From the NCBI GenBank assembly GCA_965205975.1, contig OZ242195.1, positions 144,202 through 208,201 on the forward strand: a stretch of DNA of 64,000 nt, in the 5' to 3' direction. The position numbers and the translations under genes are program-made. Of the stretch, positions 16,198-55,886 are shown in pieces. The number at the start of each line of letters is the position of its first letter. Position 1 is the first letter of the stretch. The notes below the pieces were generated by a model that was not told the DNA's origin, searched no databases, and worked only from the letters and a program-made list of their open reading frames with translations. This DNA comes from Candidatus Latescibacterota bacterium. GTDB taxonomy: Bacteria > Latescibacterota > UBA2968.

Positions 16198-16582
16198 TGG
16201 TGGAGGCGGCGGGAATCGAACCCGCGTCCGAAAGCAGTTTGATAACGGCATCTACGTGTGTAGTCTATTCACTTAGGATCTCGCATCTCGCGCCCCAACA
16301 GACAGGGTCGCTGAGATGCCAGCCCGATGGTTGGGGCTGTGGCCCGCTCTCATCCGGAGGCCCTCGAGCGGAAACCCCCGCACCAGCCTGCTCTCGTCGG
16401 CGCTCTGCCCAGACCACGCAGGCAAGGTCTGAGAGAACGGACTGCGTAACGGTTAGTTAGGCAGCCATTGCGTACGTGTTATCGTCCGCAGTTGCGTTTT
16501 TTCCCAATTGTTTTACGAGGTGATTGGGCACCTCGACACGCAGCTATTATCTCCCCACCCCCGTCGAAGCCGTGTCGCCCCC
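16198..16582 (-). ncRNA. ssrA: transfer-messenger RNA (tmRNA, SsrA)
   Basis: The 5' end is GGGGGCGACACGGCTTCGACGGGGGTG, the tmRNA tRNA-like 5' consensus. The 3' end is GCGGGTTCGATTCCCGCCGCCTCCACCA (T-arm plus acceptor/CCA). The internal tag reading frame is GCA ACT GCG GAC GAT AAC ACG TAC GCA ATG GCT GCC TAA, giving ...ATADDNTYAMAA-stop, matching the canonical ...YALAA degradation tag. Confidence 0.9.
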
Positions 16583-29924: not shown

Positions 29925-30002
29925 TGGCGGGGTAGACGGGGCTCGAACCCGCGACCACCGGCGTGACAGGCCGGTACTCTAACCAGACTGAGCTACTACC
30001 CC
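29925..30002 (-). tRNA. tRNA-Asp (GTC)
   Basis: GGGGTAGTAGCTCAGTCTGGTTAGAGTACCGGCCTGTCACGCCGGTGGTCGCGGGTTCGAGCCCCGTCTACCCCGCCA folds into a cloverleaf with a 7-bp acceptor stem, anticodon loop CTGTCAC and an encoded CCA. Confidence 0.9.
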
Positions 30003-41864: not shown

Positions 41865-42746
41865 ATGGGCAATCGGGTCAATCGCGCAGTTGAGTTGCTT
41901 TCAGAAGATCAACCGATCTATTATACAGGGGCACATACAGGGCATGTGCTTACGTTTGAACAGGGACAGAATGACGCCAGTACCTGGGCGGATTATATCA
42001 ATGTGGGTATGGAACACGGGGCTTTTAATCTGGGAGGGCTTGACGACTATATGCGCGGTCTGGTCAGCGGGGGACCTACAAATAGCGGGCACAGGACGCC
42101 CGCTGTTATTGTTGAAGCTCCTGTGGAGGGCGCGTCGGAAAATATTGTGCGCTACAATGCCTGGCAATTTCGGCAGATTCTCGCGCGCGGTGTACACGGC
42201 ATTTTGCTCTGTCAGGCGGAATCGCCCGATGCGATACGCGCTTTTGTCGAGTCGTGTCGCTATCCCATCAACAAAATCGGTGTTGGCCACGGCCTCAGTA
42301 CAGGTACGCGAGGCGTGGGGTCCGAATCGTCTGCAACAGCGATATGGGGGATTAGCCGCGATGAGTATATTCAGAAGGCAGATCCCTATCCGCTAAATCC
42401 CGATGGCGAACTGTTGCTGGGCATCAAGATTGAGAATGTGCGCGGTGCATCCAATATCGAACAGATTCTCAAGGTGCCCGGTATTGGGTTTGCCGAAATG
42501 GGTCCGGGCGATTTGAGTATGTCGATGGGGTATTTGCACCGTCCAACGCCTTTTTCTCCCGAAATGCAAGAGGTGAGGGATCGCGTGAAGGCCGCGTGTG
42601 CAGAAAACGGCGTTGCTTTTCTCGAGGGAGGTAGTCCCGAGACGGTTGCCGCAAAAATAGACGAGGGTGTGCGCGTGGTTTCCGGTGGCAGGGAAGAAAT
42701 CGCACGTGTTGGGCGCGAATATTCAGGCCGTCGCATGCCGGTTTAA
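41865..42746 (+). CDS. HpcH/HpaI aldolase / citrate-lyase beta family (PEP/pyruvate TIM-barrel) protein
   Basis: LLGIKIENVRGASNIEQILKVPGIGFAEMGPGDLSMSMGY is the family signature. AAGGAG RBS. Confidence 0.65.
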   Translation: MGNRVNRAVELLSEDQPIYYTGAHTGHVLTFEQGQNDASTWADYINVGMEHGAFNLGGLDDYMRGLVSGGPTNSGHRTPAVIVEAPVEGASENIVRYNAWQFRQILARGVHGILLCQAESPDAIRAFVESCRYPINKIGVGHGLSTGTRGVGSESSATAIWGISRDEYIQKADPYPLNPDGELLLGIKIENVRGASNIEQILKVPGIGFAEMGPGDLSMSMGYLHRPTPFSPEMQEVRDRVKAACAENGVAFLEGGSPETVAAKIDEGVRVVSGGREEIARVGREYSGRRMPV

Positions 42747-42781
42747 TAAAAAAATAGGGCTGTGCGATGTTTGCACAGCCC
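42747..42781 (-). terminator. rho-independent terminator of the MORN-repeat lipoprotein gene
   Basis: Stem gggctgtgc / gcacagccc with loop gatgttt, followed on the minus strand by TATTTTTTTATT. Confidence 0.65.
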
Positions 42782-42804
42782 CGAGTATTCGATTTAATAC
42801 GTGC

Positions 42805-43278
42805 TTAAAATGGATTGCCCTGGCGCGCCAGTTCAAATTTTCGCCAGCCGACTTGTTTGCCATTTTCGAACACTTTTTCCAGTGTGTAAAAGGAGGATGG
42901 GTCGTATTCTCGCCAGACGCCCGTTTTTTTATTTTTTAGGTATAGACCTTCTTCTTTTTTTACACCGTTTCTAAAATAAGATATCCAGTGTCCGTCTATT
43001 ACACCATTTGTCCAGTTGCCTTCTGTTTTTTTCTGTCCGTTGCTGTAAAATGTGATTTCAAGCCCGTCTTGCATGACGCCATTTTTGTATGTGCCCTGCC
43101 CGTGTACGTTGCCCGCGGCATCGTAATATGTCCAAACCCCAGTGCGGGCACCGCTGTCGTATTGCCCTTTTGCCACTACGCGGCCGTATTGTTTTATTTC
43201 CGTCTGTCCTTCAAATAGCGAGGGCATCTGACACCCGGCTGTTAGGATTCCCACGAGAAGAATTGTAATTTTGTTCAT
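42805..43278 (-). CDS. MORN-repeat-variant lipoprotein (YwqK-like antitoxin family fold)
   Basis: Lipobox LTAGC; repeated G-x-W-x-x-Y/F motifs (GVWTYYDAAGNV, GLEITFYSNGQK, GHWISYFRNGVK, GVWREYDPSS). AGGAG RBS. Confidence 0.65.
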   Translation of the reverse strand: MNKITILLVGILTAGCQMPSLFEGQTEIKQYGRVVAKGQYDSGARTGVWTYYDAAGNVHGQGTYKNGVMQDGLEITFYSNGQKKTEGNWTNGVIDGHWISYFRNGVKKEEGLYLKNKKTGVWREYDPSSFYTLEKVFENGKQVGWRKFELARQGNPF

Positions 43279-43511
43279 TTTTTACTCCTGTGTTGTTCTT
43301 TGGATATTTTATGTGATAAACTAATATACAAAACTGTTTTCATAAGGCAAAGACCGAAATGACAAATGATTCATTTAATACTTGTGAGTGTGCATAAATT
43401 GGACCTGACCTCAACTACAAAGCGATTGCACTCAACGACACCTTTATTGTTACCACCGTCCTCTCATAGTATTTTGTAAACAGTTCGCTTATCGTGGACA
43501 AAGAGTCCAAT

Positions 43512-44237
43512 ATGTTACTCATTGAACTGGGCCAACGCCTTCGCGCTCAGCGGGAACGCCTTGGCCTCAAGCAAAACGACGTTGCCAATGCCCTGCAGGT
43601 AAGTCCACAGGCCGTTTCCAAGTGGGAAAGGGGTGAAAACGGTCCCGACATTGCTACTCTGGGACCTCTTGCCAGATTGCTCGGCGTTTCGACGGACTGG
43701 CTTTTGGATGCACATGGCGAAAATCAAGATGTTTTTGATGCTACTATCTTTACCTCTACCGTCGTCGGTGCATATCAAAAATCATTACAAATGGAGGCGC
43801 GGGAGTTTGCAGCATGGGCAAATGGTATTTTGTTTCAACTGACCGAAGCTGTTTTGCGCCACGATGGCGTTCCGCTCAGATATATGGGTGACGCATTTTT
43901 GTGTTTTTTTTCCGGTGTTCACCATCAGCTTCGCGCTGCTCAAGCAGCGGCATTTTCCCAGCGGCTCATCAGCGAAGACCTGGTCATTGGTTTGAGCAGT
44001 GGTGAGATTTATTTGGGCGCAATGGGGCATCCCGATTACGCTCATCCCGATGTGACGGGAGAAGTGGTCAACATCGCGTTTATTGTTCGAGAATGGGCAG
44101 AAACAAATGTCCGCAAAGGAATTGCAGCAACGACATCTGTGTCGAACAATCTCGATGAAGTTTTTGATATTTCCCAACCCACAGAAATCAATTTTCGCGG
44201 CATTGAGACGCCCATCTCAATTTGTCAGATCAGATAG
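43512..44237 (+). CDS. XRE-family HTH fused to a class III nucleotidyl cyclase homology domain
   Basis: The N-terminus LGQRLRAQRERLGLKQNDVANALQVSPQAVSKWERGENGPDIATLGPLARLLGVSTDWLL is a Cro/C1 HTH. The C-terminus aligns to the cyclase core: VFDATIFTST (metal Asp), RYMGDAFLCFF (second Asp), GLSSGEIYLGAMG and DVTGEVVNIAF (Asn present, Arg shifted). An upstream GTG at 43494 is an alternative start. Confidence 0.6.
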   Translation: MLLIELGQRLRAQRERLGLKQNDVANALQVSPQAVSKWERGENGPDIATLGPLARLLGVSTDWLLDAHGENQDVFDATIFTSTVVGAYQKSLQMEAREFAAWANGILFQLTEAVLRHDGVPLRYMGDAFLCFFSGVHHQLRAAQAAAFSQRLISEDLVIGLSSGEIYLGAMGHPDYAHPDVTGEVVNIAFIVREWAETNVRKGIAATTSVSNNLDEVFDISQPTEINFRGIETPISICQIR

Positions 44238-44282
44238 GGGTGTTCCTTGTCCGCGTGTGCCAACCGAGAGAAAGGATAAAAT

Positions 44283-45734
44283 ATGGCCGATGTAGTGTTG
44301 CCCGATAGCGCGATTGATATTCAAATTCCCGATTATTCGCATCTGCCCTATAAAGTCGCCGATATGTCTCAGGCAGATTTTGGACGAAAAGAGATCACAA
44401 TTGCCGAGCAAGAGATGCCCGGTTTGATGGCTGTGCGCGAAAAATACGCAGATCAGAAACCTCTGAAGGGTGCCCGCATAATGGGTTCGCTTCACATGAC
44501 GATTCAGACCGCTGTGTTGATCGAGTCGCTCAGGGTGTTGGGGGCCGATGTGCGCTGGGCGTCGTGCAATATTTTTTCTACCCAGGACCACGCAGCCGCC
44601 GCTATTGCAGAAACGGGTACGCCGGTTTATGCGTGGAAGGGCGAGTCGCTGGAAGAATATTGGGAATGCACTTTGCAAGCACTCAATTTTGTGGAGGGTG
44701 GACCGACACTTATTGTCGATGATGGAGGAGATGCGACGTTGCTGGTTCACCGGGGGTATCAGGCTGAAGACGATCCTTCGATTCTCGATGAGCCAACCGA
44801 TAATCGCGAATTGGAGATTGTCAATGCCGTGCTGAGGCGGCAACTCGAGCGCGATCCGCGTTTTTGGCACAGTATGGCTGCGGATATTCAGGGCGTGTCA
44901 GAGGAGACTACAACAGGTGTTCACCGCCTGTATCAGATGCGGGATGACGGCACGCTTCTTTTTCCCGCGATCAATGTCAATGATTCGGTGACCAAATCGA
45001 AATTTGATAATCTCTATGGCTGCCGCGAATCGCTTGCCGACGGTATTAAGCGCGCGACGGATGTTATGGTCGCTGGCAAGGTCGTTTGCGTGTGTGGTTA
45101 CGGCGATGTGGGCAAGGGATGTGCCCAATCTATGCGGGGATTTGGCGCGCGTGTGTTGGTGACGGAGATCGATCCGATATGTGCTTTGCAGGCGGCGATG
45201 GAGGGTTTTGAAGTGACGACTGTGGAGGATGCCCTTTCCGAAGCCAATATTTTTGTTACGACGACGGGAAATACGGATATTATCCGCATTGAGCACATGG
45301 TAAATATGCTCGACCAATCCATTGTGTGCAATATCGGGCATTTTGACAATGAGATTCAGGTCGATAAGCTGGTCGATTATCCGGGTATTGTGCACGAAAA
45401 TATCAAGCCGCAGGTCGATAAATACACGTTTCCAGATGGGCAGGCGATTTTTTTGCTCGCGGAAGGCCGTCTGGTCAATCTCGGTTGTGCAACCGGGCAT
45501 CCTTCTTTTGTGATGTCCAATTCGTTTACCAATCAGGTGCTGGCGCAGATGGATCTGTGGGCACAACAACGCGAAGTCGGCGTTTATACGTTGTCCAAAC
45601 ACCTCGACGAGGAGGTTGCGCGCCTTCATCTTGAAAAACTGGGTGTAAAGTTGACCCAACTCACGCAGAAGCAGGCCGATTATATTGGCGTGTCTGTCGA
45701 AGGTCCGTATAAACCCGGTCATTACCGGTATTAA
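44283..45734 (+). CDS. ahcY: adenosylhomocysteinase
   Basis: [33 protein letters not shown] ... NAD-binding [33 protein letters not shown] ... C-terminal [11 protein letters not shown]. Length 483 aa. Confidence 0.9.
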
Positions 45735-45741
45735 CGATTAG

Positions 45742-45777
45742 GGGACTGGGAGCTTATCCCCAGTCCCAACCTTTTTT
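45742..45777 (+). terminator. rho-independent terminator after ahcY
   Basis: Stem gggactggg / cccagtccc with an 8-nt loop, followed by AACCTTTTTTA. Confidence 0.65.
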
Positions 45778-46656
45778 ATGCGATTTTTAGACTATTTTAC
45801 CGGCAATCAATCGGTCATTTCGTTTGAGATTTATCCGCCGCAGACGTCGGGTGGTATGCGCGCGCTCAAAGCGCGGGTTGTTCCCAATTTGCTCAAGCTG
45901 AATCCCAGCTATATGACGGTTACGTATGGCGCAGGTGGCTCGACACGCGCCAAGACGCTGGAGATTGCCTCGCTTATTCAGAATGAATTTGGGCTGACTG
46001 CGGCGTGTCATCTCACCTGTGTGGGGTCGTCCCGGACAGATATCGATGATATTTTGCAGGCGATTCGCGCAGAGGGTATCCGCAATATTGTTGCGCTTCG
46101 CGGCGATCCCCCGCGTGGCGAAGATACTTTTGTGCCCGCGAAGGATGGATTTGCTTATGGCAATGAGCTTGTGGCGCATATTCGCAGTACAGAACCGAAA
46201 GACGATGGGTTTGGGTTGGCTGTTGCGGGGTATCCCGAGAAACACCTCGAAGCGCCCGATTTTGATACGGATATTGCAAATTTGAAGCGGAAAGTTGAGT
46301 CAGGTGGGGATATTGTTATTACGCAGCTTTTTTATAATAACGATCACTTTTTTCGTTTTGTCGATCGCGTGCGTGCAGCCCATATCACAGCACCTGTTGT
46401 TCCGGGTCTGATGCCGATTCTCGCGGCGGGACAGATCCAGCGCATCGCATCTTTGTGTGGGGCTGAGATTCCGGGGGATTTGCAGGATCAACTCAAGGGG
46501 GCTGTGGATGATGAAGACAAGGCGATGAAAATTGGGGTAGATCAGTGCATCGAGCAGGCAACCGAATTGCTCGAACAGGGCGTGCCGGGTATTCACTTTT
46601 ACGTGCTGAACAAATCCACTCACATGCGCCGGATTATCAGCGCGCTTCCTCTCTAA
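45778..46656 (+). CDS. metF: 5,10-methylenetetrahydrofolate reductase
   Basis: SFEIYPPQTSGGMRAL ... VTYGAGGSTRAKTLEIASLIQNEFGLTAACHLTC ... ALRGDPP. No SD sequence precedes the ATG at 45778, so the start is tentative. Confidence 0.85.
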   Translation: MRFLDYFTGNQSVISFEIYPPQTSGGMRALKARVVPNLLKLNPSYMTVTYGAGGSTRAKTLEIASLIQNEFGLTAACHLTCVGSSRTDIDDILQAIRAEGIRNIVALRGDPPRGEDTFVPAKDGFAYGNELVAHIRSTEPKDDGFGLAVAGYPEKHLEAPDFDTDIANLKRKVESGGDIVITQLFYNNDHFFRFVDRVRAAHITAPVVPGLMPILAAGQIQRIASLCGAEIPGDLQDQLKGAVDDEDKAMKIGVDQCIEQATELLEQGVPGIHFYVLNKSTHMRRIISALPL

Positions 46657-47167
46657 GTGGAAATTTCTCAGTGATTAGCATAATTGGCTTTTTATTGGCG
46701 AGCACTCTGTAGGTGCGGCTGAGTAGTGGTTCCCCTTCAAGATGCGCAATGGCTTCCGGCAGATCCCGTGCGGTTTCACAGCAGCACCACAACAATTCAC
46801 GGCGGGTTTCCAGTCCGCTGTTTTGCAAAATCCCTCCCAATCCCGCAGGATCTGATTCCAATTCGTCCAAAATGCCTTTTGGCAAGTGTTGCGGTACAAT
46901 GAGGGATGTGGCATACGCCTGAATTTTTGGCGTATCTTTGCCGATTGAGGGCGTTTGTAGTACTGCTTGTCGTGCTATGACGTGTGCCCCTGCTGGCAGT
47001 TCAAGCCAGATATGTTCTGTGCAGAGCGTCTGTTCCGTCTGGTGGAGGATCGCGACTTCCACCGGCGCGAGTGTATAGGCTTCGATGAGTCTTGTGACGG
47101 TGCCGTCGGTGACGATTAATGCCCGCTGGAATGGCGTTAATTGCGCGATGTTGATTTCTCCAGACAT
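46637..47167 (-). CDS. hypothetical protein, chorismate-lyase (UbiC)/DUF98-like fold
   Basis: LIVTDGTVTRLIEAYT resembles the UbiC-family LxxxDGSxTxxLE motif. A GAAAGG RBS precedes the ATG at 47167. The longer ORF extending to 47254 is an alternative. The assignment is weak. Confidence 0.4.
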   Translation of the reverse strand: MSGEINIAQLTPFQRALIVTDGTVTRLIEAYTLAPVEVAILHQTEQTLCTEHIWLELPAGAHVIARQAVLQTPSIGKDTPKIQAYATSLIVPQHLPKGILDELESDPAGLGGILQNSGLETRRELLWCCCETARDLPEAIAHLEGEPLLSRTYRVLANKKPIMLITEKFPLREEAR

Positions 47168-47376
47168 CGCTGGCCTTTCGGCCTGTGCGACAAATATATT
47201 TTTTACGTGTGTGTCAATAAAGGTTGTCGAATTGAAAATTGAATCTGTCTTCATCGAGCTATTGTCCTTTCATATATACAGTCGTTGCGCAACGCACTTT
47301 AGACACATAAGGACAAAAAAAGTTCTGAAACATTGCATGTGTGATTCTAATCCGTTATTTTGATGGGAAGAGCGCA

Positions 47377-55107: not shown

Positions 55108-55440
55108 TCATCGCGTTTTTTGCGCTTCCATATATGCCCGTAGGACCGCATTCATTCGAGTTTGATATCCCCTGCCGAACGATTGAAAAAAGTCAACAAC
55201 ATCGTTATCAATTCGCAGCGAGATTTGTTTCTTTCTTTTTGGCATTACAACCCGTAGTTGTGTCAGGTCGCAGTCTTCTAAGCGCAGTGAGTCGGGGTCT
55301 TCGCGGGCGTTGCGCTCAATTTCCTCTTCGGTCATTGTGTCCAACCGATGCCAATCGGTTTTGTCTTTCTTGCTGCCTACTGGCACACCTTGGGAAACAG
55401 AAGTTATTTTGTCTTTCTTTTTGTTTGTGATCCTGCTCAT
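55108..55440 (-). CDS. brnA: BrnA antitoxin (ribbon-helix-helix, type II TA)
   Basis: TDWHRLDTMTEEEIERNAREDPDSLRL ... KKQISLRIDNDVVDFFQSFGRGYQTRMNAVLRAYMEA matches the BrnA family consensus. Confidence 0.8.
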   Translation of the reverse strand: MSRITNKKKDKITSVSQGVPVGSKKDKTDWHRLDTMTEEEIERNAREDPDSLRLEDCDLTQLRVVMPKRKKQISLRIDNDVVDFFQSFGRGYQTRMNAVLRAYMEAQKTR

Positions 55441-55450
55441 TATCGCCTCC

Positions 55451-55714
55451 TCATGTGTTTAACTCAAACACGTTCCTCTCTTTTCTACTCGCTTTTCGTG
55501 CCGAAATGATCCTCCGGGCCTCGTCACGCCAGGTATAAACAACGGCAATTACGTGATTGTTGAGCATGCCAAGTGCAAGTATCCGAGCTTCGCCATGTCG
55601 CCTTTGGGGAATCTCTACAACTGTATTTTCAAAGATGTTTATAGCGACTCGAAAGTCGTAGCCGTGTTTCTCAATATTGGCAAGCCGCTTATTTATATCC
55701 CATTCAAATTTCAC
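55451..55714 (-). CDS. brnT: BrnT toxin (DUF497 ribonuclease, type II TA)
   Basis: VKFEWDINKRLANIEKHGYDFRVAINIFEN ... ARILALGMLNNHVIAVVYTWRDEARRIISARKASRKE matches the BrnT consensus (KFEWDxxKxxxNxxKHG). The start is taken at the GTG at 55714, but the ORF is open upstream to 55777. The gene lies 10 nt upstream of brnA. Confidence 0.7.
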   Translation of the reverse strand: MKFEWDINKRLANIEKHGYDFRVAINIFENTVVEIPQRRHGEARILALGMLNNHVIAVVYTWRDEARRIISARKASRKERNVFELNT

Positions 55715-55810
55715 ATAATGAATATACAAAATGTAGATACATTTATCAATACAAACAATACAAAATAAAACAGGCACTTGCGAGAAGTACGTAAGTGCCT
55801 GTTCGGATTA

Positions 55811-55886
<76 letters not shown>

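Follow-up and report, generated by a model that had tools for sequence, protein, structure and literature searches.

The 64,000-nucleotide stretch of DNA analysed here (the window) encodes a 241-residue protein in which an XRE-type helix-turn-helix (HTH) domain is joined, through a linker of ~6 residues, to a degenerate class III cyclase-homology domain (CHD). This protein is probably a transcription factor that governs the regulator-ahcY-metF operon, its own gene included, and in it a pseudo-cyclase dimer would sense an adenosine-containing metabolite, most plausibly S-adenosylhomocysteine (SAH). The narrower notion, that the CHD has been turned into a receptor for SAH or a close adenosine derivative and drives the DNA-binding domain, is put forward tentatively, as having somewhat less than an even chance of being right; the case for SAH as the effector comes from the content of the predicted regulon and from the adenosine-binding residues that the CHD appears to have retained.

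Domains of the regulator and residues of the cyclase-homology domain

The regulator gene lies on the + strand at 43512..44237 (241 codons plus stop). The sequence-only reading had outlined the open reading frame as 43494-44237, encoding 241 aa; the frame is real, and the in-frame GTG at 43494 is an alternative start, but homologues all begin at the position of the ATG at 43512 (MLL.ELG in the family alignment) and the protein is therefore 241 aa long. The family numbers at least 867 homologues, counted as database clusters at 90% identity. The best 120 of them are 240-361 aa long, all but two being under 265 aa, and nearly all span the full query; mean column identity in the family is only 62-67%. 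Public records name its members only as 'helix-turn-helix domain-containing protein' or 'class 3 adenylate cyclase'.

Residues 1-66 (43512..43709, + strand) are unambiguously the Cro/C1-type HTH that had been read from the sequence. Pfam HTH_3 (PF01381) matches residues 10-64 of the single sequence at E=3.5e-16, with 59.4 bits against a cut-off of 23; the closest relatives in the PDB are the P22 c2 repressor (E=1.7e-11) and the 434 repressor (E=9.3e-7); and the five helices of an HTH_3-type DNA-binding domain of the XRE/Cro-C1 family are found in the AF2 model at residues 3-16, 21-28, 32-40, 47-56 and 61-64. The recognition-helix segment, QAVSKWERGEN, is invariant in 40 of 41 loci, down to 37% overall identity; in the sole exception (L017) it ends in ...ERDES.

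The CHD occupies residues 73-241 (43728..44234, + strand). Single-sequence searches of Pfam, NCBIfam and the PDB were too weak to settle its identity, and it took a profile of the family and a model of the structure to establish it. PF00211 scores the single sequence at E=0.0089 and 16.1 bits, under the gathering score of 21.9. A profile of 20 family CHDs matches, along the full length of the domain, class III cyclases of solved structure, namely Cya2 (2w01, E=2.5e-10), CyaB (3r5g, 1.3e-8), CyaC (1wc0, 1.8e-6) and Rv1625c (4p2f, 3.6e-6). The AF2 model of the protein (pLDDT 90) retrieves Cya2, CyaC and CyaB in Foldseek at E=2.7e-13 to 8e-12, with target-normalised TM scores of 0.70-0.78 (0.76 with E=2.7e-13). 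By fold and by sequence homology the domain thus belongs with the class III cyclases, and the fusion of an XRE HTH to a CHD that had been proposed is upheld.

In class III cyclases the metal-binding Asp residues are described as indispensable, a Lys-Asp pair reads N1 and N6 of adenine, and an Asn and an Arg are the transition-state residues (PMC4886424). HMM alignments to Cya2, CyaB and CyaC place the first metal Asp, that of the F-S-D-I-x-G-F-T motif, at T83; among 152 family members this position holds S in 76, T in 39, G in 16, A in 8 and D in 8, the Asp being missing in ~95%. The second metal Asp is D127, kept in 143 of 152 members (94%). Of the two metal-binding Asp residues previously assigned, to VFDATIF and to MGDAF, the latter (D127) therefore stands; the former is D76, which lies seven residues upstream of T83 at the start of strand beta1 and was rejected as the first metal Asp on the alignments to the three solved cyclases.

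The substrate-specifying pair (Lys plus Asp or Thr for ATP) is in place in the family: position 123, that of the substrate Lys, is K in 135 of the 152 members (89%), and the adenine-specifying D180 is D in 146 (96%). The protein itself has Arg at 123, as had been noticed, and so has its own clade; the occurrence of Arg in this clade, where Lys is otherwise conserved, counts against the main reading. The transition-state Asn, also recognised earlier, is N187, kept in 140 of 152 members (92%). The N-x-x-x-R pair that it should form with the transition-state Arg is broken: at N+4 the protein has I191 and the family has L in 124, I in 4 and R in 13 of 152, so that the Arg is missing in ~91%. The sequence-only reading had called this Arg displaced; it is absent from its canonical position, and no evidence was found of a shift elsewhere.

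Taken over six positions, the signature [S/T/G/A]-K-D-D-N-L is found in 112 of the 152 members and the full D-K-D-D-N-R set in only two distant ones, P0130 and P0136. With Cya2, CyaC, CyaB and Rv1625c the domain shares the fold, the order of secondary-structure elements, the second metal Asp, the Lys-Asp pair and the Asn; it differs from them in having S, T, G or A for the first metal Asp, L or I for the transition-state Arg, GAY for the GFT loop, and an XRE HTH rather than a sensor domain at its N-terminal side. Only 78 of 152 members have Lys at the position in the C-terminal F-K-G motif that we take to correspond to the gamma-phosphate Lys of cyclases. Since the first metal Asp and the transition-state Arg are lost, the CHD very probably is not a cyclase enzyme and no longer cyclises nucleotides; with D127 kept, some residual metal or nucleotide chemistry is conceivable, which counts against the main reading. 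Since the residues that hold adenine and ribose are kept while cyclisation is very probably lost, the domain is most likely a receptor for an adenosine metabolite.

The probable ahcY operon, its candidate operator and its predicted promoter

The gene for SAH hydrolase, ahcY (44283..45734, + strand; TIGR00936, 623 bits; PF05221, 4.7e-149), starts 45 nt after the regulator stop, and no convincing terminator was found between the two; ahcY is probably a co-transcribed target of the regulator. The third gene of the cluster is metF, encoding methylenetetrahydrofolate reductase (45778..46656, + strand; TIGR00676, 316 bits). The flanking genes named in the sequence-only reading, one for a MORN-repeat protein (PF07661) and ahcY, are both there. 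The MORN-repeat gene, conserved within Latescibacterota only, was rejected as part of the system; ahcY, which had been taken as a mere neighbour, is on the contrary, together with the operator within 43279-43493, what we regard as the key to function.

In 28 of 38 informative loci ahcY lies directly downstream of the regulator on the same strand. These loci belong to Latescibacterota, Hydrogenedentota, Nitrospinota and Planctomycetota, at least four phyla, and to unclassified metagenome contigs; the regulator-ahcY pairing is kept from phylum to phylum as all the other neighbours change, metF following ahcY only in Latescibacterota relatives (L001-L004, L023). Among the 10 of 38 loci that lack ahcY, the neighbour is MetH in one (L015), an adenosine deaminase in another (L007, 3.8e-83) and a thrC-like PLP enzyme in a third (L018). 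The downstream gene of L009 is unrelated to the pathway, and no identity was obtained for those of L019 and L020. Simple greedy ORF calling failed in high-GC loci. In L007 the operator described below is found between the regulator stop and the adenosine deaminase gene, not before the regulator. At loci without ahcY or without the operator element the target, if any, would lie elsewhere in the genome.

The candidate operator is a bipartite element of 42 nt (43410..43451, + strand) made of two ~21-bp units, CTCAACTACAAAGCGATTGCA and CTCAACGACACCTTTATTGTT, each of which opens with an invariant (T)CAAC; the family consensus is ctCAACca...cGt.A....a.tCAAC.acc.CgTcATTG.c. It lies in the interval (43279-43493) that had been singled out as the place to look for a palindromic operator, but the half-sites are ambiguous, only the left CAAC of each unit being invariant, and just a few loci (L007, L009, L099) have a clean 17-bp palindrome (CTCAA-N7-TTGAG). 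A position weight matrix (PWM) trained on 22 other loci, with the window's own site left out, has a single match in the 64 kb, at 34.1 bits, to be compared with a maximum of 14.3 over 20 shuffles and of 17.5-18.5 bits in 576 kb of control loci. Each of the 23 loci from which the model was built has a single copy of the element, on the + strand and 31-79 nt ahead of the regulator ATG. Of 39 assessable loci, 33 carry the element, among them L097 and L098, which were not used in training, and 6 lack it. A recognition helix that is invariant in all but one locus matches this conservation of the operator, and the predicted element would provide the specific site near a regulated promoter that is proper to XRE/Cro-C1 proteins. 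A single-unit 20-nt PWM is not specific enough for predicting a wider regulon, shuffled sequence reaching 20.9 bits; its second-best match in the window, at 55544-55563, falls inside a small ORF and was taken as chance.

The promoter was placed by comparison of loci; a generic scan, in which only 8 of 12 positions match, did not call one on the + strand. The predicted -35 hexamer is TTGTTA (43447..43452, + strand), its TTG being the last conserved block of operator unit 2, and the predicted -10 hexamer is TATTTT (43470..43475, + strand). Of 25 non-redundant loci, 22 have a TAnnnT 16-18 nt downstream of the element's TTGnnn, the background rate being 1.2% (binomial P ~2e-39). Transcription is predicted to start near 43482, which would put the centres of the operator units at ~-42 and ~-63 (each +/-2). 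Conservation of the terminal TTG of the operator is partly due to the -35 element itself.

A riboswitch was considered as an explanation of the conserved upstream element and rejected. The SAH riboswitch is found upstream of ahcY(-metF) operons, which it turns on when SAH rises (PMC4239095), and the content of those operons is the same as in the window. However, its control is RNA-based, whereas the element described here lies upstream of the conserved -10, in untranscribed DNA. An Rfam cmscan of 42700-46800 at E<=1, a region that includes the DNA upstream of ahcY, gave only a chance match to a plant-virus pseudoknot and no riboswitch, the SAH riboswitch covariance model included; the scan of the whole window at the gathering cut-off gave a tmRNA and two tRNAs only.

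Proposed mode of action and choice of effector

These features can be assembled into a one-component transcription factor of the methyl cycle. By analogy with all class III cyclases, two subunits would dimerise through their CHDs, thereby bringing their N-terminal XRE-type HTH domains next to each other, and two such dimers would occupy the two ~21-bp operator units, abutting or overlapping the -35 element of the regulator-ahcY-metF promoter. The kept adenine- and ribose-holding residues (Lys/Arg123, Asp180, Asn187) would make of the dimer interface a receptor for an adenosine-containing metabolite, for which SAH would be the ligand that fits the regulon best. Its binding would change the orientation of the subunits and of the HTH pair and so raise expression of ahcY or, in other genomes, of adenosine deaminase, metH or the thrC-like gene. 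A regulatory ligand site of a comparable kind exists in mammalian adenylyl cyclase (AC), where forskolin occupies a pocket at the cyclase dimer interface that is devoid of catalytic residues. The pocket proposed here would likewise be a degenerate dimer-interface site; in heterodimeric cyclases, however, one site stays catalytic, whereas here both sites of a symmetric homodimer would be degenerate and the output would be DNA binding.

We lean slightly to ligand-dependent activation, because site centres near -42 and -63 resemble those of lambda cI at PRM or of a class II plus a class I activator; relief by the ligand of a repression exerted by occluding the -35 element has prospects just short of even. 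The lambda cI, 434 and P22 c2 repressors, which include the closest PDB relatives of the HTH, have in common with the arrangement proposed here tandem sites (there of ~17 bp) about two helical turns apart, of which the promoter-proximal one abuts the -35 element, a geometry that lets lambda cI activate PRM. They differ in carrying a LexA/S24-like oligomerisation and cleavage domain where a cyclase fold is found here, and in being products of phage immunity genes rather than of a chromosomal, metabolic gene.

An effector other than SAH (adenosine, SAM, ATP or ADP, cAMP or homocysteine), acting through the same architecture on the same target, is unlikely but is the alternative to be taken most seriously, for in real cyclases the adenosine moiety is all that K/R123, D180 and N187 recognise (PMC4886424), and the adenosine deaminase that appears to be the direct target in L007 would suit a sensor of adenosine as well. 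Against it stands the company that the regulator keeps. The regulon core of both SahR and the SAH riboswitch comprises ahcY, metH, metF and metK (PMC4239095), and a regulon that is centred on ahcY (28 of 38 loci) and takes in metH and metF is what characterises those two SAH-responsive systems, as opposed to systems that respond to SAM or ATP (PMC4239095). ATP is further disfavoured by the fact that the triphosphate- and metal-handling residues are the ones that have been lost, and adenosine by the consideration that inducing ahcY would presumably drive a reversible reaction the wrong way.

A second alternative, distinctly improbable, is that the CHD binds no ligand and is only a scaffold for dimerisation, the protein being a constitutive autoregulator that fixes the level of ahcY. 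Class III cyclase domains are obligate dimers, and many small XRE regulators need just a dimerisation module. Packing, however, would hardly demand the conservation that is seen: K123, D127, D180 and N187 stand far above the domain average among the 152 members, the pocket residues being conserved at 89-96%, and the family-specific polar residues N104, T111, R141, H173 and Y176 are each conserved in at least 93%, in a family whose mean is 62-67%. Linkage to a metabolic gene across phyla, moreover, usually accompanies control by a metabolite.

Still less probable is that the protein is a minimal but functional nucleotide cyclase anchored to DNA, with non-canonical catalytic residues; a DNA-tethered cyclase was one of the two possibilities that the sequence-only reading had raised. 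The fold is intact, with D127, K/R123, D180 and N187 kept; 89% of the 152 members have an acidic residue at position 73 and 82% have one at position 76; P0130 and P0136 have the full catalytic set, P0130 with the same operator upstream; and atypical cyclases without the Asn are active (PMC4886424). Nevertheless, one of the metal Asp residues said there to be indispensable and the transition-state Arg are gone in ~90% of the 152 relatives as well as here, and in a homodimer the losses touch each of the two active sites. D73 and D76 lie at the far end of strand beta1, 7-10 residues off the metal site, and the two members with complete sets have no link to ahcY. The same losses favour the other possibility that had been raised, a DNA-binding regulator with a cyclase-like domain as its sensor or pseudo-enzyme. 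Finally, the notion that synteny is incidental, the regulator acting on some other gene or only on itself and ahcY sharing its transcript or neighbourhood, can appeal to the ten loci without ahcY downstream but is very improbable when the pairing outlasts all other neighbours across phyla, the alternative neighbours belong to the same pathway, and the L007 operator has moved to a place before adenosine deaminase.

Comparable regulators and significance

The preferred reading, an SAH-sensing pseudo-cyclase regulator, has analogues in two known kinds of protein. SahR, a regulator of Proteobacteria, shares the regulon core (its own gene, ahcY, metH and metF) and autoregulation, and has a palindromic operator of ~20 bp (PMC4239095). 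The likeness is one of regulon content only: SahR belongs to the ArsR DNA-binding family and the present protein to the XRE family, which makes them analogues, not homologues, and the Pfam and NCBIfam matches of the protein include neither an ArsR nor a methyltransferase family, even at E<=10. The XRE-CHD family, for its part, is found in Latescibacterota, Hydrogenedentota, Nitrospinota, Planctomycetota and others. The sensor domain of SahR is methyltransferase-like.

In design the parallel is BzdR/BoxR, in which an N-terminal XRE-type HTH and a linker likewise precede a C-terminal domain derived from a nucleotide-binding enzyme; in BzdR it is an inactivated shikimate-kinase-like domain that serves as the effector module (PMC3602430). 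The effector folds are unrelated (P-loop kinase there, cyclase/palm-like here), as are the pathways (benzoyl-CoA and the methyl cycle), and the protein is not a member of the BzdR subfamily: the NCBIfam model PRK08154 matches residues 2-80 only, with 27.6 bits against a cut-off of 204, and the shikimate-kinase-like domain is missing. The counterpart of the BzdR 'missing link' would be P0130 and P0136, with their complete catalytic sets.

A literature search yielded no description of an XRE-cyclase regulator of ahcY; such an absence does not prove novelty, but the protein is most likely an undescribed methyl-cycle regulator with a dead cyclase as its sensor. We know of no earlier transcription factor whose effector domain is a cyclase catalytic domain. 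If the proposal is correct, SAH sensing would have evolved independently a third time, after the SAH riboswitch and SahR, and the cyclase-derived effector would be spread over at least four little-studied phyla. The protein would also be a natural case of reverse signalling through a cyclase dimer, from occupancy of the pocket to the N-terminal domains, and the passage from complete to degenerate catalytic sets would offer an evolutionary series comparable to that of BzdR. A compact protein of 241 residues with a defined 42-bp operator might serve as a biosensor for SAH or adenosine. For the family, of at least 867 clusters at 90% identity, the finding would supply a function and a testable ligand, and it would caution against scoring its genes as producers of cAMP in Latescibacterota, Hydrogenedentota, Nitrospinota and Planctomycetota. 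For these organisms it would reveal how methyl-cycle homeostasis, and with it the detoxification of SAH, is controlled in phyla with neither SahR nor an SAH riboswitch at the locus.

Architecture and active-site residues of the probable regulator

The open reading frame of the regulator extends on the + strand from 43494 (GTG) or 43512 (ATG) to 44237. Its homologues all start at the ATG position (M-L-L-x-E-L-G), so that the product is 241 amino acids long, the size that the sequence-only reading had given. The Cro/C1-type HTH of that reading is confirmed as HTH_3 (PF01381) at residues 10-64 (E=3.5e-16, 59.4 bits); the closest solved structures to it are the P22 c2, 434 and ICEBs1 repressors. 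PF00211 (Guanylate_cyc) spans 162 of its 183 profile positions on the single regulator sequence, but the match (E=0.0089, 16.1 bits) is below the gathering score of 21.9, so one sequence cannot settle the cyclase-profile match on which the earlier reading had staked its domain assignment. A profile made from 20 family cyclase-homology domains (CHDs) matches solved class III cyclases over the whole domain: Cya2 at E=2.5e-10, CyaB at 1.3e-8, CyaC at 1.8e-6 and Rv1625c at 3.6e-6. The AlphaFold2 model, which has a mean pLDDT of 90 and a flexible linker over residues 69-71, recovers the same structures in Foldseek (E=2.7e-13 to about 1e-11; target-normalised TM 0.70-0.78). The XRE-HTH plus CHD architecture is real.

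The six canonical catalytic positions were placed by HMM alignments to Cya2, CyaB and CyaC. The second metal Asp (D127), the adenine-specifying residue (D180; Asp in mammalian adenylyl cyclases (ACs), Thr in CyaB and CyaC) and the Asn (N187) are kept, the substrate Lys is Arg (R123), and the first metal Asp (of F-S-D-I-x-G-F-T) and the transition-state Arg (N+4) are lost, T83 and I191 standing in their places. The Asn and the Lys-to-Arg exchange are as originally read. Of the two metal-binding Asp residues then thought present, only D127 stands: D76 (in VFDATIF) lies seven residues ahead of the metal position, at the start of strand beta1, and is therefore not the metal Asp. The transition-state Arg had been called displaced; the canonical position does lack Arg, and the alignments score the residue as lost.

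An alignment of 152 full-length family members, whose identity to the window protein ranges from 29% to 98%, has S, T, G or A at position 83 in 139 and D in 8; at position 191, 128 members have L or I and 13 have R. The most frequent six-position signature, [S/T/G/A]-K-D-D-N-L, is that of 112 members. The retained polar residues are very highly conserved (K123 in 89%, D127 in 94%, D180 in 96%, N187 in 92%), as are the family-specific N104, T111, R141, H173 and Y176 (each at least 93%). In a cyclase homodimer each of the symmetric sites comprises the Asp pair of one chain and the Lys, Asp, Asn and Arg of the other. Because the metal Asp residues are considered indispensable (PMC4886424), this sharing would leave both sites of the regulator crippled. 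The C-terminal domain, assigned by homology to the class III cyclase superfamily, fails two defining catalytic features of these enzymes, and the regulator is consequently not to be filed as one. The residues lost are those that handle metals and phosphates; those kept are the adenine contacts and, as is established from mammalian AC structures, the ribose contacts.

Gene neighborhood

The regulator stop is only 45 nt from ahcY (44283-45734; TIGR00936, 623 bits), and metF (45778-46656; TIGR00676, 316 bits) follows. The ahcY flank had been read correctly, as had the MORN-repeat flank, a divergent gene at 42805-43278 whose conservation is restricted to Latescibacterota. An ORF at 46637-47254 (-), of the chorismate pyruvate-lyase Rv2949c-like family (PF01947, 2.5e-15), converges with metF, its stop overlapping the metF end by ~20 nt; it is kept after metF among close Latescibacterota relatives. 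The window is from a Candidatus Latescibacterota genome; L001 (OZ220741.1) is 99% identical.

Full-length family loci were collected from species-representative genomes (22) and metagenomes (18). Where downstream sequence suffices, ahcY is the next same-strand gene in 28 of 38 loci, in Latescibacterota, Hydrogenedentota, Nitrospinota and Planctomycetota among others; all other neighbors vary between lineages. Three of the ten exceptions have, downstream, a five-domain cobalamin-dependent methionine synthase (L015), an adenosine deaminase (L007, Bacterium UASB14; PF00962, 3.8e-83) and a thrC-like PLP enzyme (L018:6756-8174; TIGR00260, 217 bits); the downstream neighbors of the other seven lie outside the methyl cycle or have no assigned identity. 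The thrC-like enzyme carries a ~90-residue N-terminal extension with Cys and His residues, and might serve homocysteine or methionine rather than threonine synthesis.

Predicted operator and promoter

The upstream regions of the family, otherwise unalignable and ranging from about 30% to 70% G+C, have in common a 42-nt bipartite element (ctCAACca...cGt.A....a.tCAAC.acc.CgTcATTG.c) whose two invariant CAAC blocks recur at a spacing of 21 nt (in a few loci, 20-22). When the window's own copy is kept out of the training set, the resulting matrix finds exactly one match in the window, at 43410-43451 (+), with 34.1 bits against 14.3 for the best of 20 shuffles. For the palindromic operator that had been suggested for 43279-43493, this conserved element is the candidate. 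It was recovered from 33 of 39 assessable loci, as a single + strand copy per locus, and in the 23 model-building loci it is 31-79 nt upstream of the regulator start; two untrained loci carry it (L097, 35.7 bits; L098, 30.5 bits), and control loci with unrelated XRE genes (576 kb) reach a maximum of 17.5-18.5 bits. In L007 it lies at L007:6753-6795, past the regulator stop and ~190 nt before the adenosine deaminase gene, an independent sign that the motif belongs with genes of the pathway and not with that of the regulator itself. The HTH recognition segment (Q-A-V-S-K-W-E-R-G-E-N) is unchanged in 40 of 41 loci, even where overall identity falls to 37%, which fits an operator conserved across phyla.

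Unit 2 reads CAAC-N9-ATTG, and its three outermost base pairs show complementarity in 91-96% of loci. In L009 and L099, unit 1 forms a clean 17-bp palindrome (CTCAA-N7-TTGAG); its L007 counterpart is near-perfect (TTCAA-N7-TTGAG). Right half-sites are degenerate in most loci, and the half-site structure can be read in more than one way. The Planctomycetota contig L020, whose upstream sequence is too short for operator assessment, has a (GACAGA)n simple repeat (L020:1-117) directly upstream of the regulator gene. A sub-threshold single-unit match at 55544-55563 was taken as chance; it falls in the second of two adjacent small ORFs (110 and 108 aa; 55108-55777, -) beside a tRNA gene, which by eye look like a BrnA/BrnT-type antitoxin-toxin pair. 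The window also carries a tmRNA gene (16198-16582, -; RF00023, 189.7 bits) and two tRNA genes, one at 29928-30002 (-) and one at 55814-55886 (-).

The element's terminal TTG is also a -35 element: TAnnnT lies 16-18 nt past TTGnnn in 22 of 25 non-redundant loci (background 1.2%; binomial P about 2e-39). This conserved spacing predicts, on the + strand, a -35 TTGTTA at 43447-43452 and a -10 TATTTT at 43470-43475, with transcription starting near 43482, a leader of ~30 nt, and operator units centered near -42 and -63 (each +/-2 by half-site reading). Lying upstream of the -10, the element is a DNA element and not leader RNA; an Rfam search of 42700-46800 at E<=1 found no riboswitch, and the riboswitch reading was rejected on both grounds. 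In L019, L094, L097 and L098 the conserved -10 ends 8-16 nt before the alignment-assumed start codon; either their transcripts would be leaderless or nearly so, or translation in fact begins at a later codon. A sigma-70-like promoter match (TTGCCT-16-TATATT; 43323-43350, -) faces the MORN-repeat gene; it is upstream of the operator by 60 nt, which keeps the two divergent promoters clear of each other.

A model for ligand-responsive control of ahcY

The best-supported reading of these sequences makes the protein a one-component regulator. Its CHDs would dimerize, as is universal for the cyclase fold, and short linkers would then bring two HTH domains together; the 21-bp spacing suggests two dimers on the tandem operator units, on one DNA face. 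An adenosine-containing metabolite bound in the CHD interface pocket would alter DNA binding or RNA polymerase recruitment. S-adenosylhomocysteine (SAH) would be the most economical ligand, because its build-up demands more AhcY and removal of adenosine and homocysteine, because both known analogous systems respond to it, and because the pocket kept adenosine-binding residues and lost those for triphosphate and metals. The operator sites, the proximal one abutting the -35, are placed like those of lambda cI at PRM and of class II and class I activators, and hence lean slightly toward activation: ligand-dependent activation with positive autoregulation has marginally better than even chances, and ligand-relieved repression by -35 occlusion, which has the same physiological logic, falls just short of them.

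That the effector is another compound, such as adenosine, SAM or ATP, is unlikely but the most credible of the alternatives. That the CHD is a ligand-free dimerization scaffold is improbable, since the polar pocket residues are strongly conserved. An active minimal cyclase, tethered to DNA as the sequence-only reading had alternatively proposed, is more doubtful still, the first metal Asp and the transition-state Arg being lost. The intact fold and the retained D127 speak for it, as do two distant members (43-45% identical) that alone have the complete D-K-D-D-N-R set, P0130 (L099:2932-3669) and P0136 (L102:518-1252). Both keep a GFT-like loop, reach PF00211, and may be active HTH-cyclases that mark the most enzyme-like stage in an evolutionary series. 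Against it, ahcY adjoins neither gene, although P0130 retains the bipartite operator ahead of its own gene (L099:2838-2878, inter-unit spacing one base shorter). An incidental regulator-ahcY synteny has hardly any likelihood. Favored is the other original alternative, a regulator with a cyclase-like pseudo-enzyme, supported by T83 and I191 in place of catalytic residues, by ahcY synteny and by the conserved operator; there is a strong bioinformatic case that the protein regulates ahcY and that its cyclase domain is dead, and we consider this quite probable.

In function, the regulator is nearest to SahR, an SAH-responsive ArsR-type protein whose core regulon is sahR, ahcY, metH, metF and metK, and to the SAH riboswitch, found ahead of ahcY-metF operons (PMC4239095); SAH hydrolase, removal of its products adenosine and homocysteine, and methyl-THF supply make up the gene set that both systems control. 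In design it is nearest to BzdR, in which an XRE HTH is joined to a shikimate-kinase-like domain that had to lose its activity to take on the regulatory role (PMC3602430). It has no homology to any of the three beyond the HTH. Public names for the family are 'helix-turn-helix domain-containing protein', 'transcriptional regulator with XRE-family HTH domain' and 'class 3 adenylate cyclase'; NCBIfam has no model covering it, and literature searches for the family found no description. On its sequence features we rate the regulator as a one-component, metabolite-responsive transcription factor whose type of sensor domain would be new in such a role.
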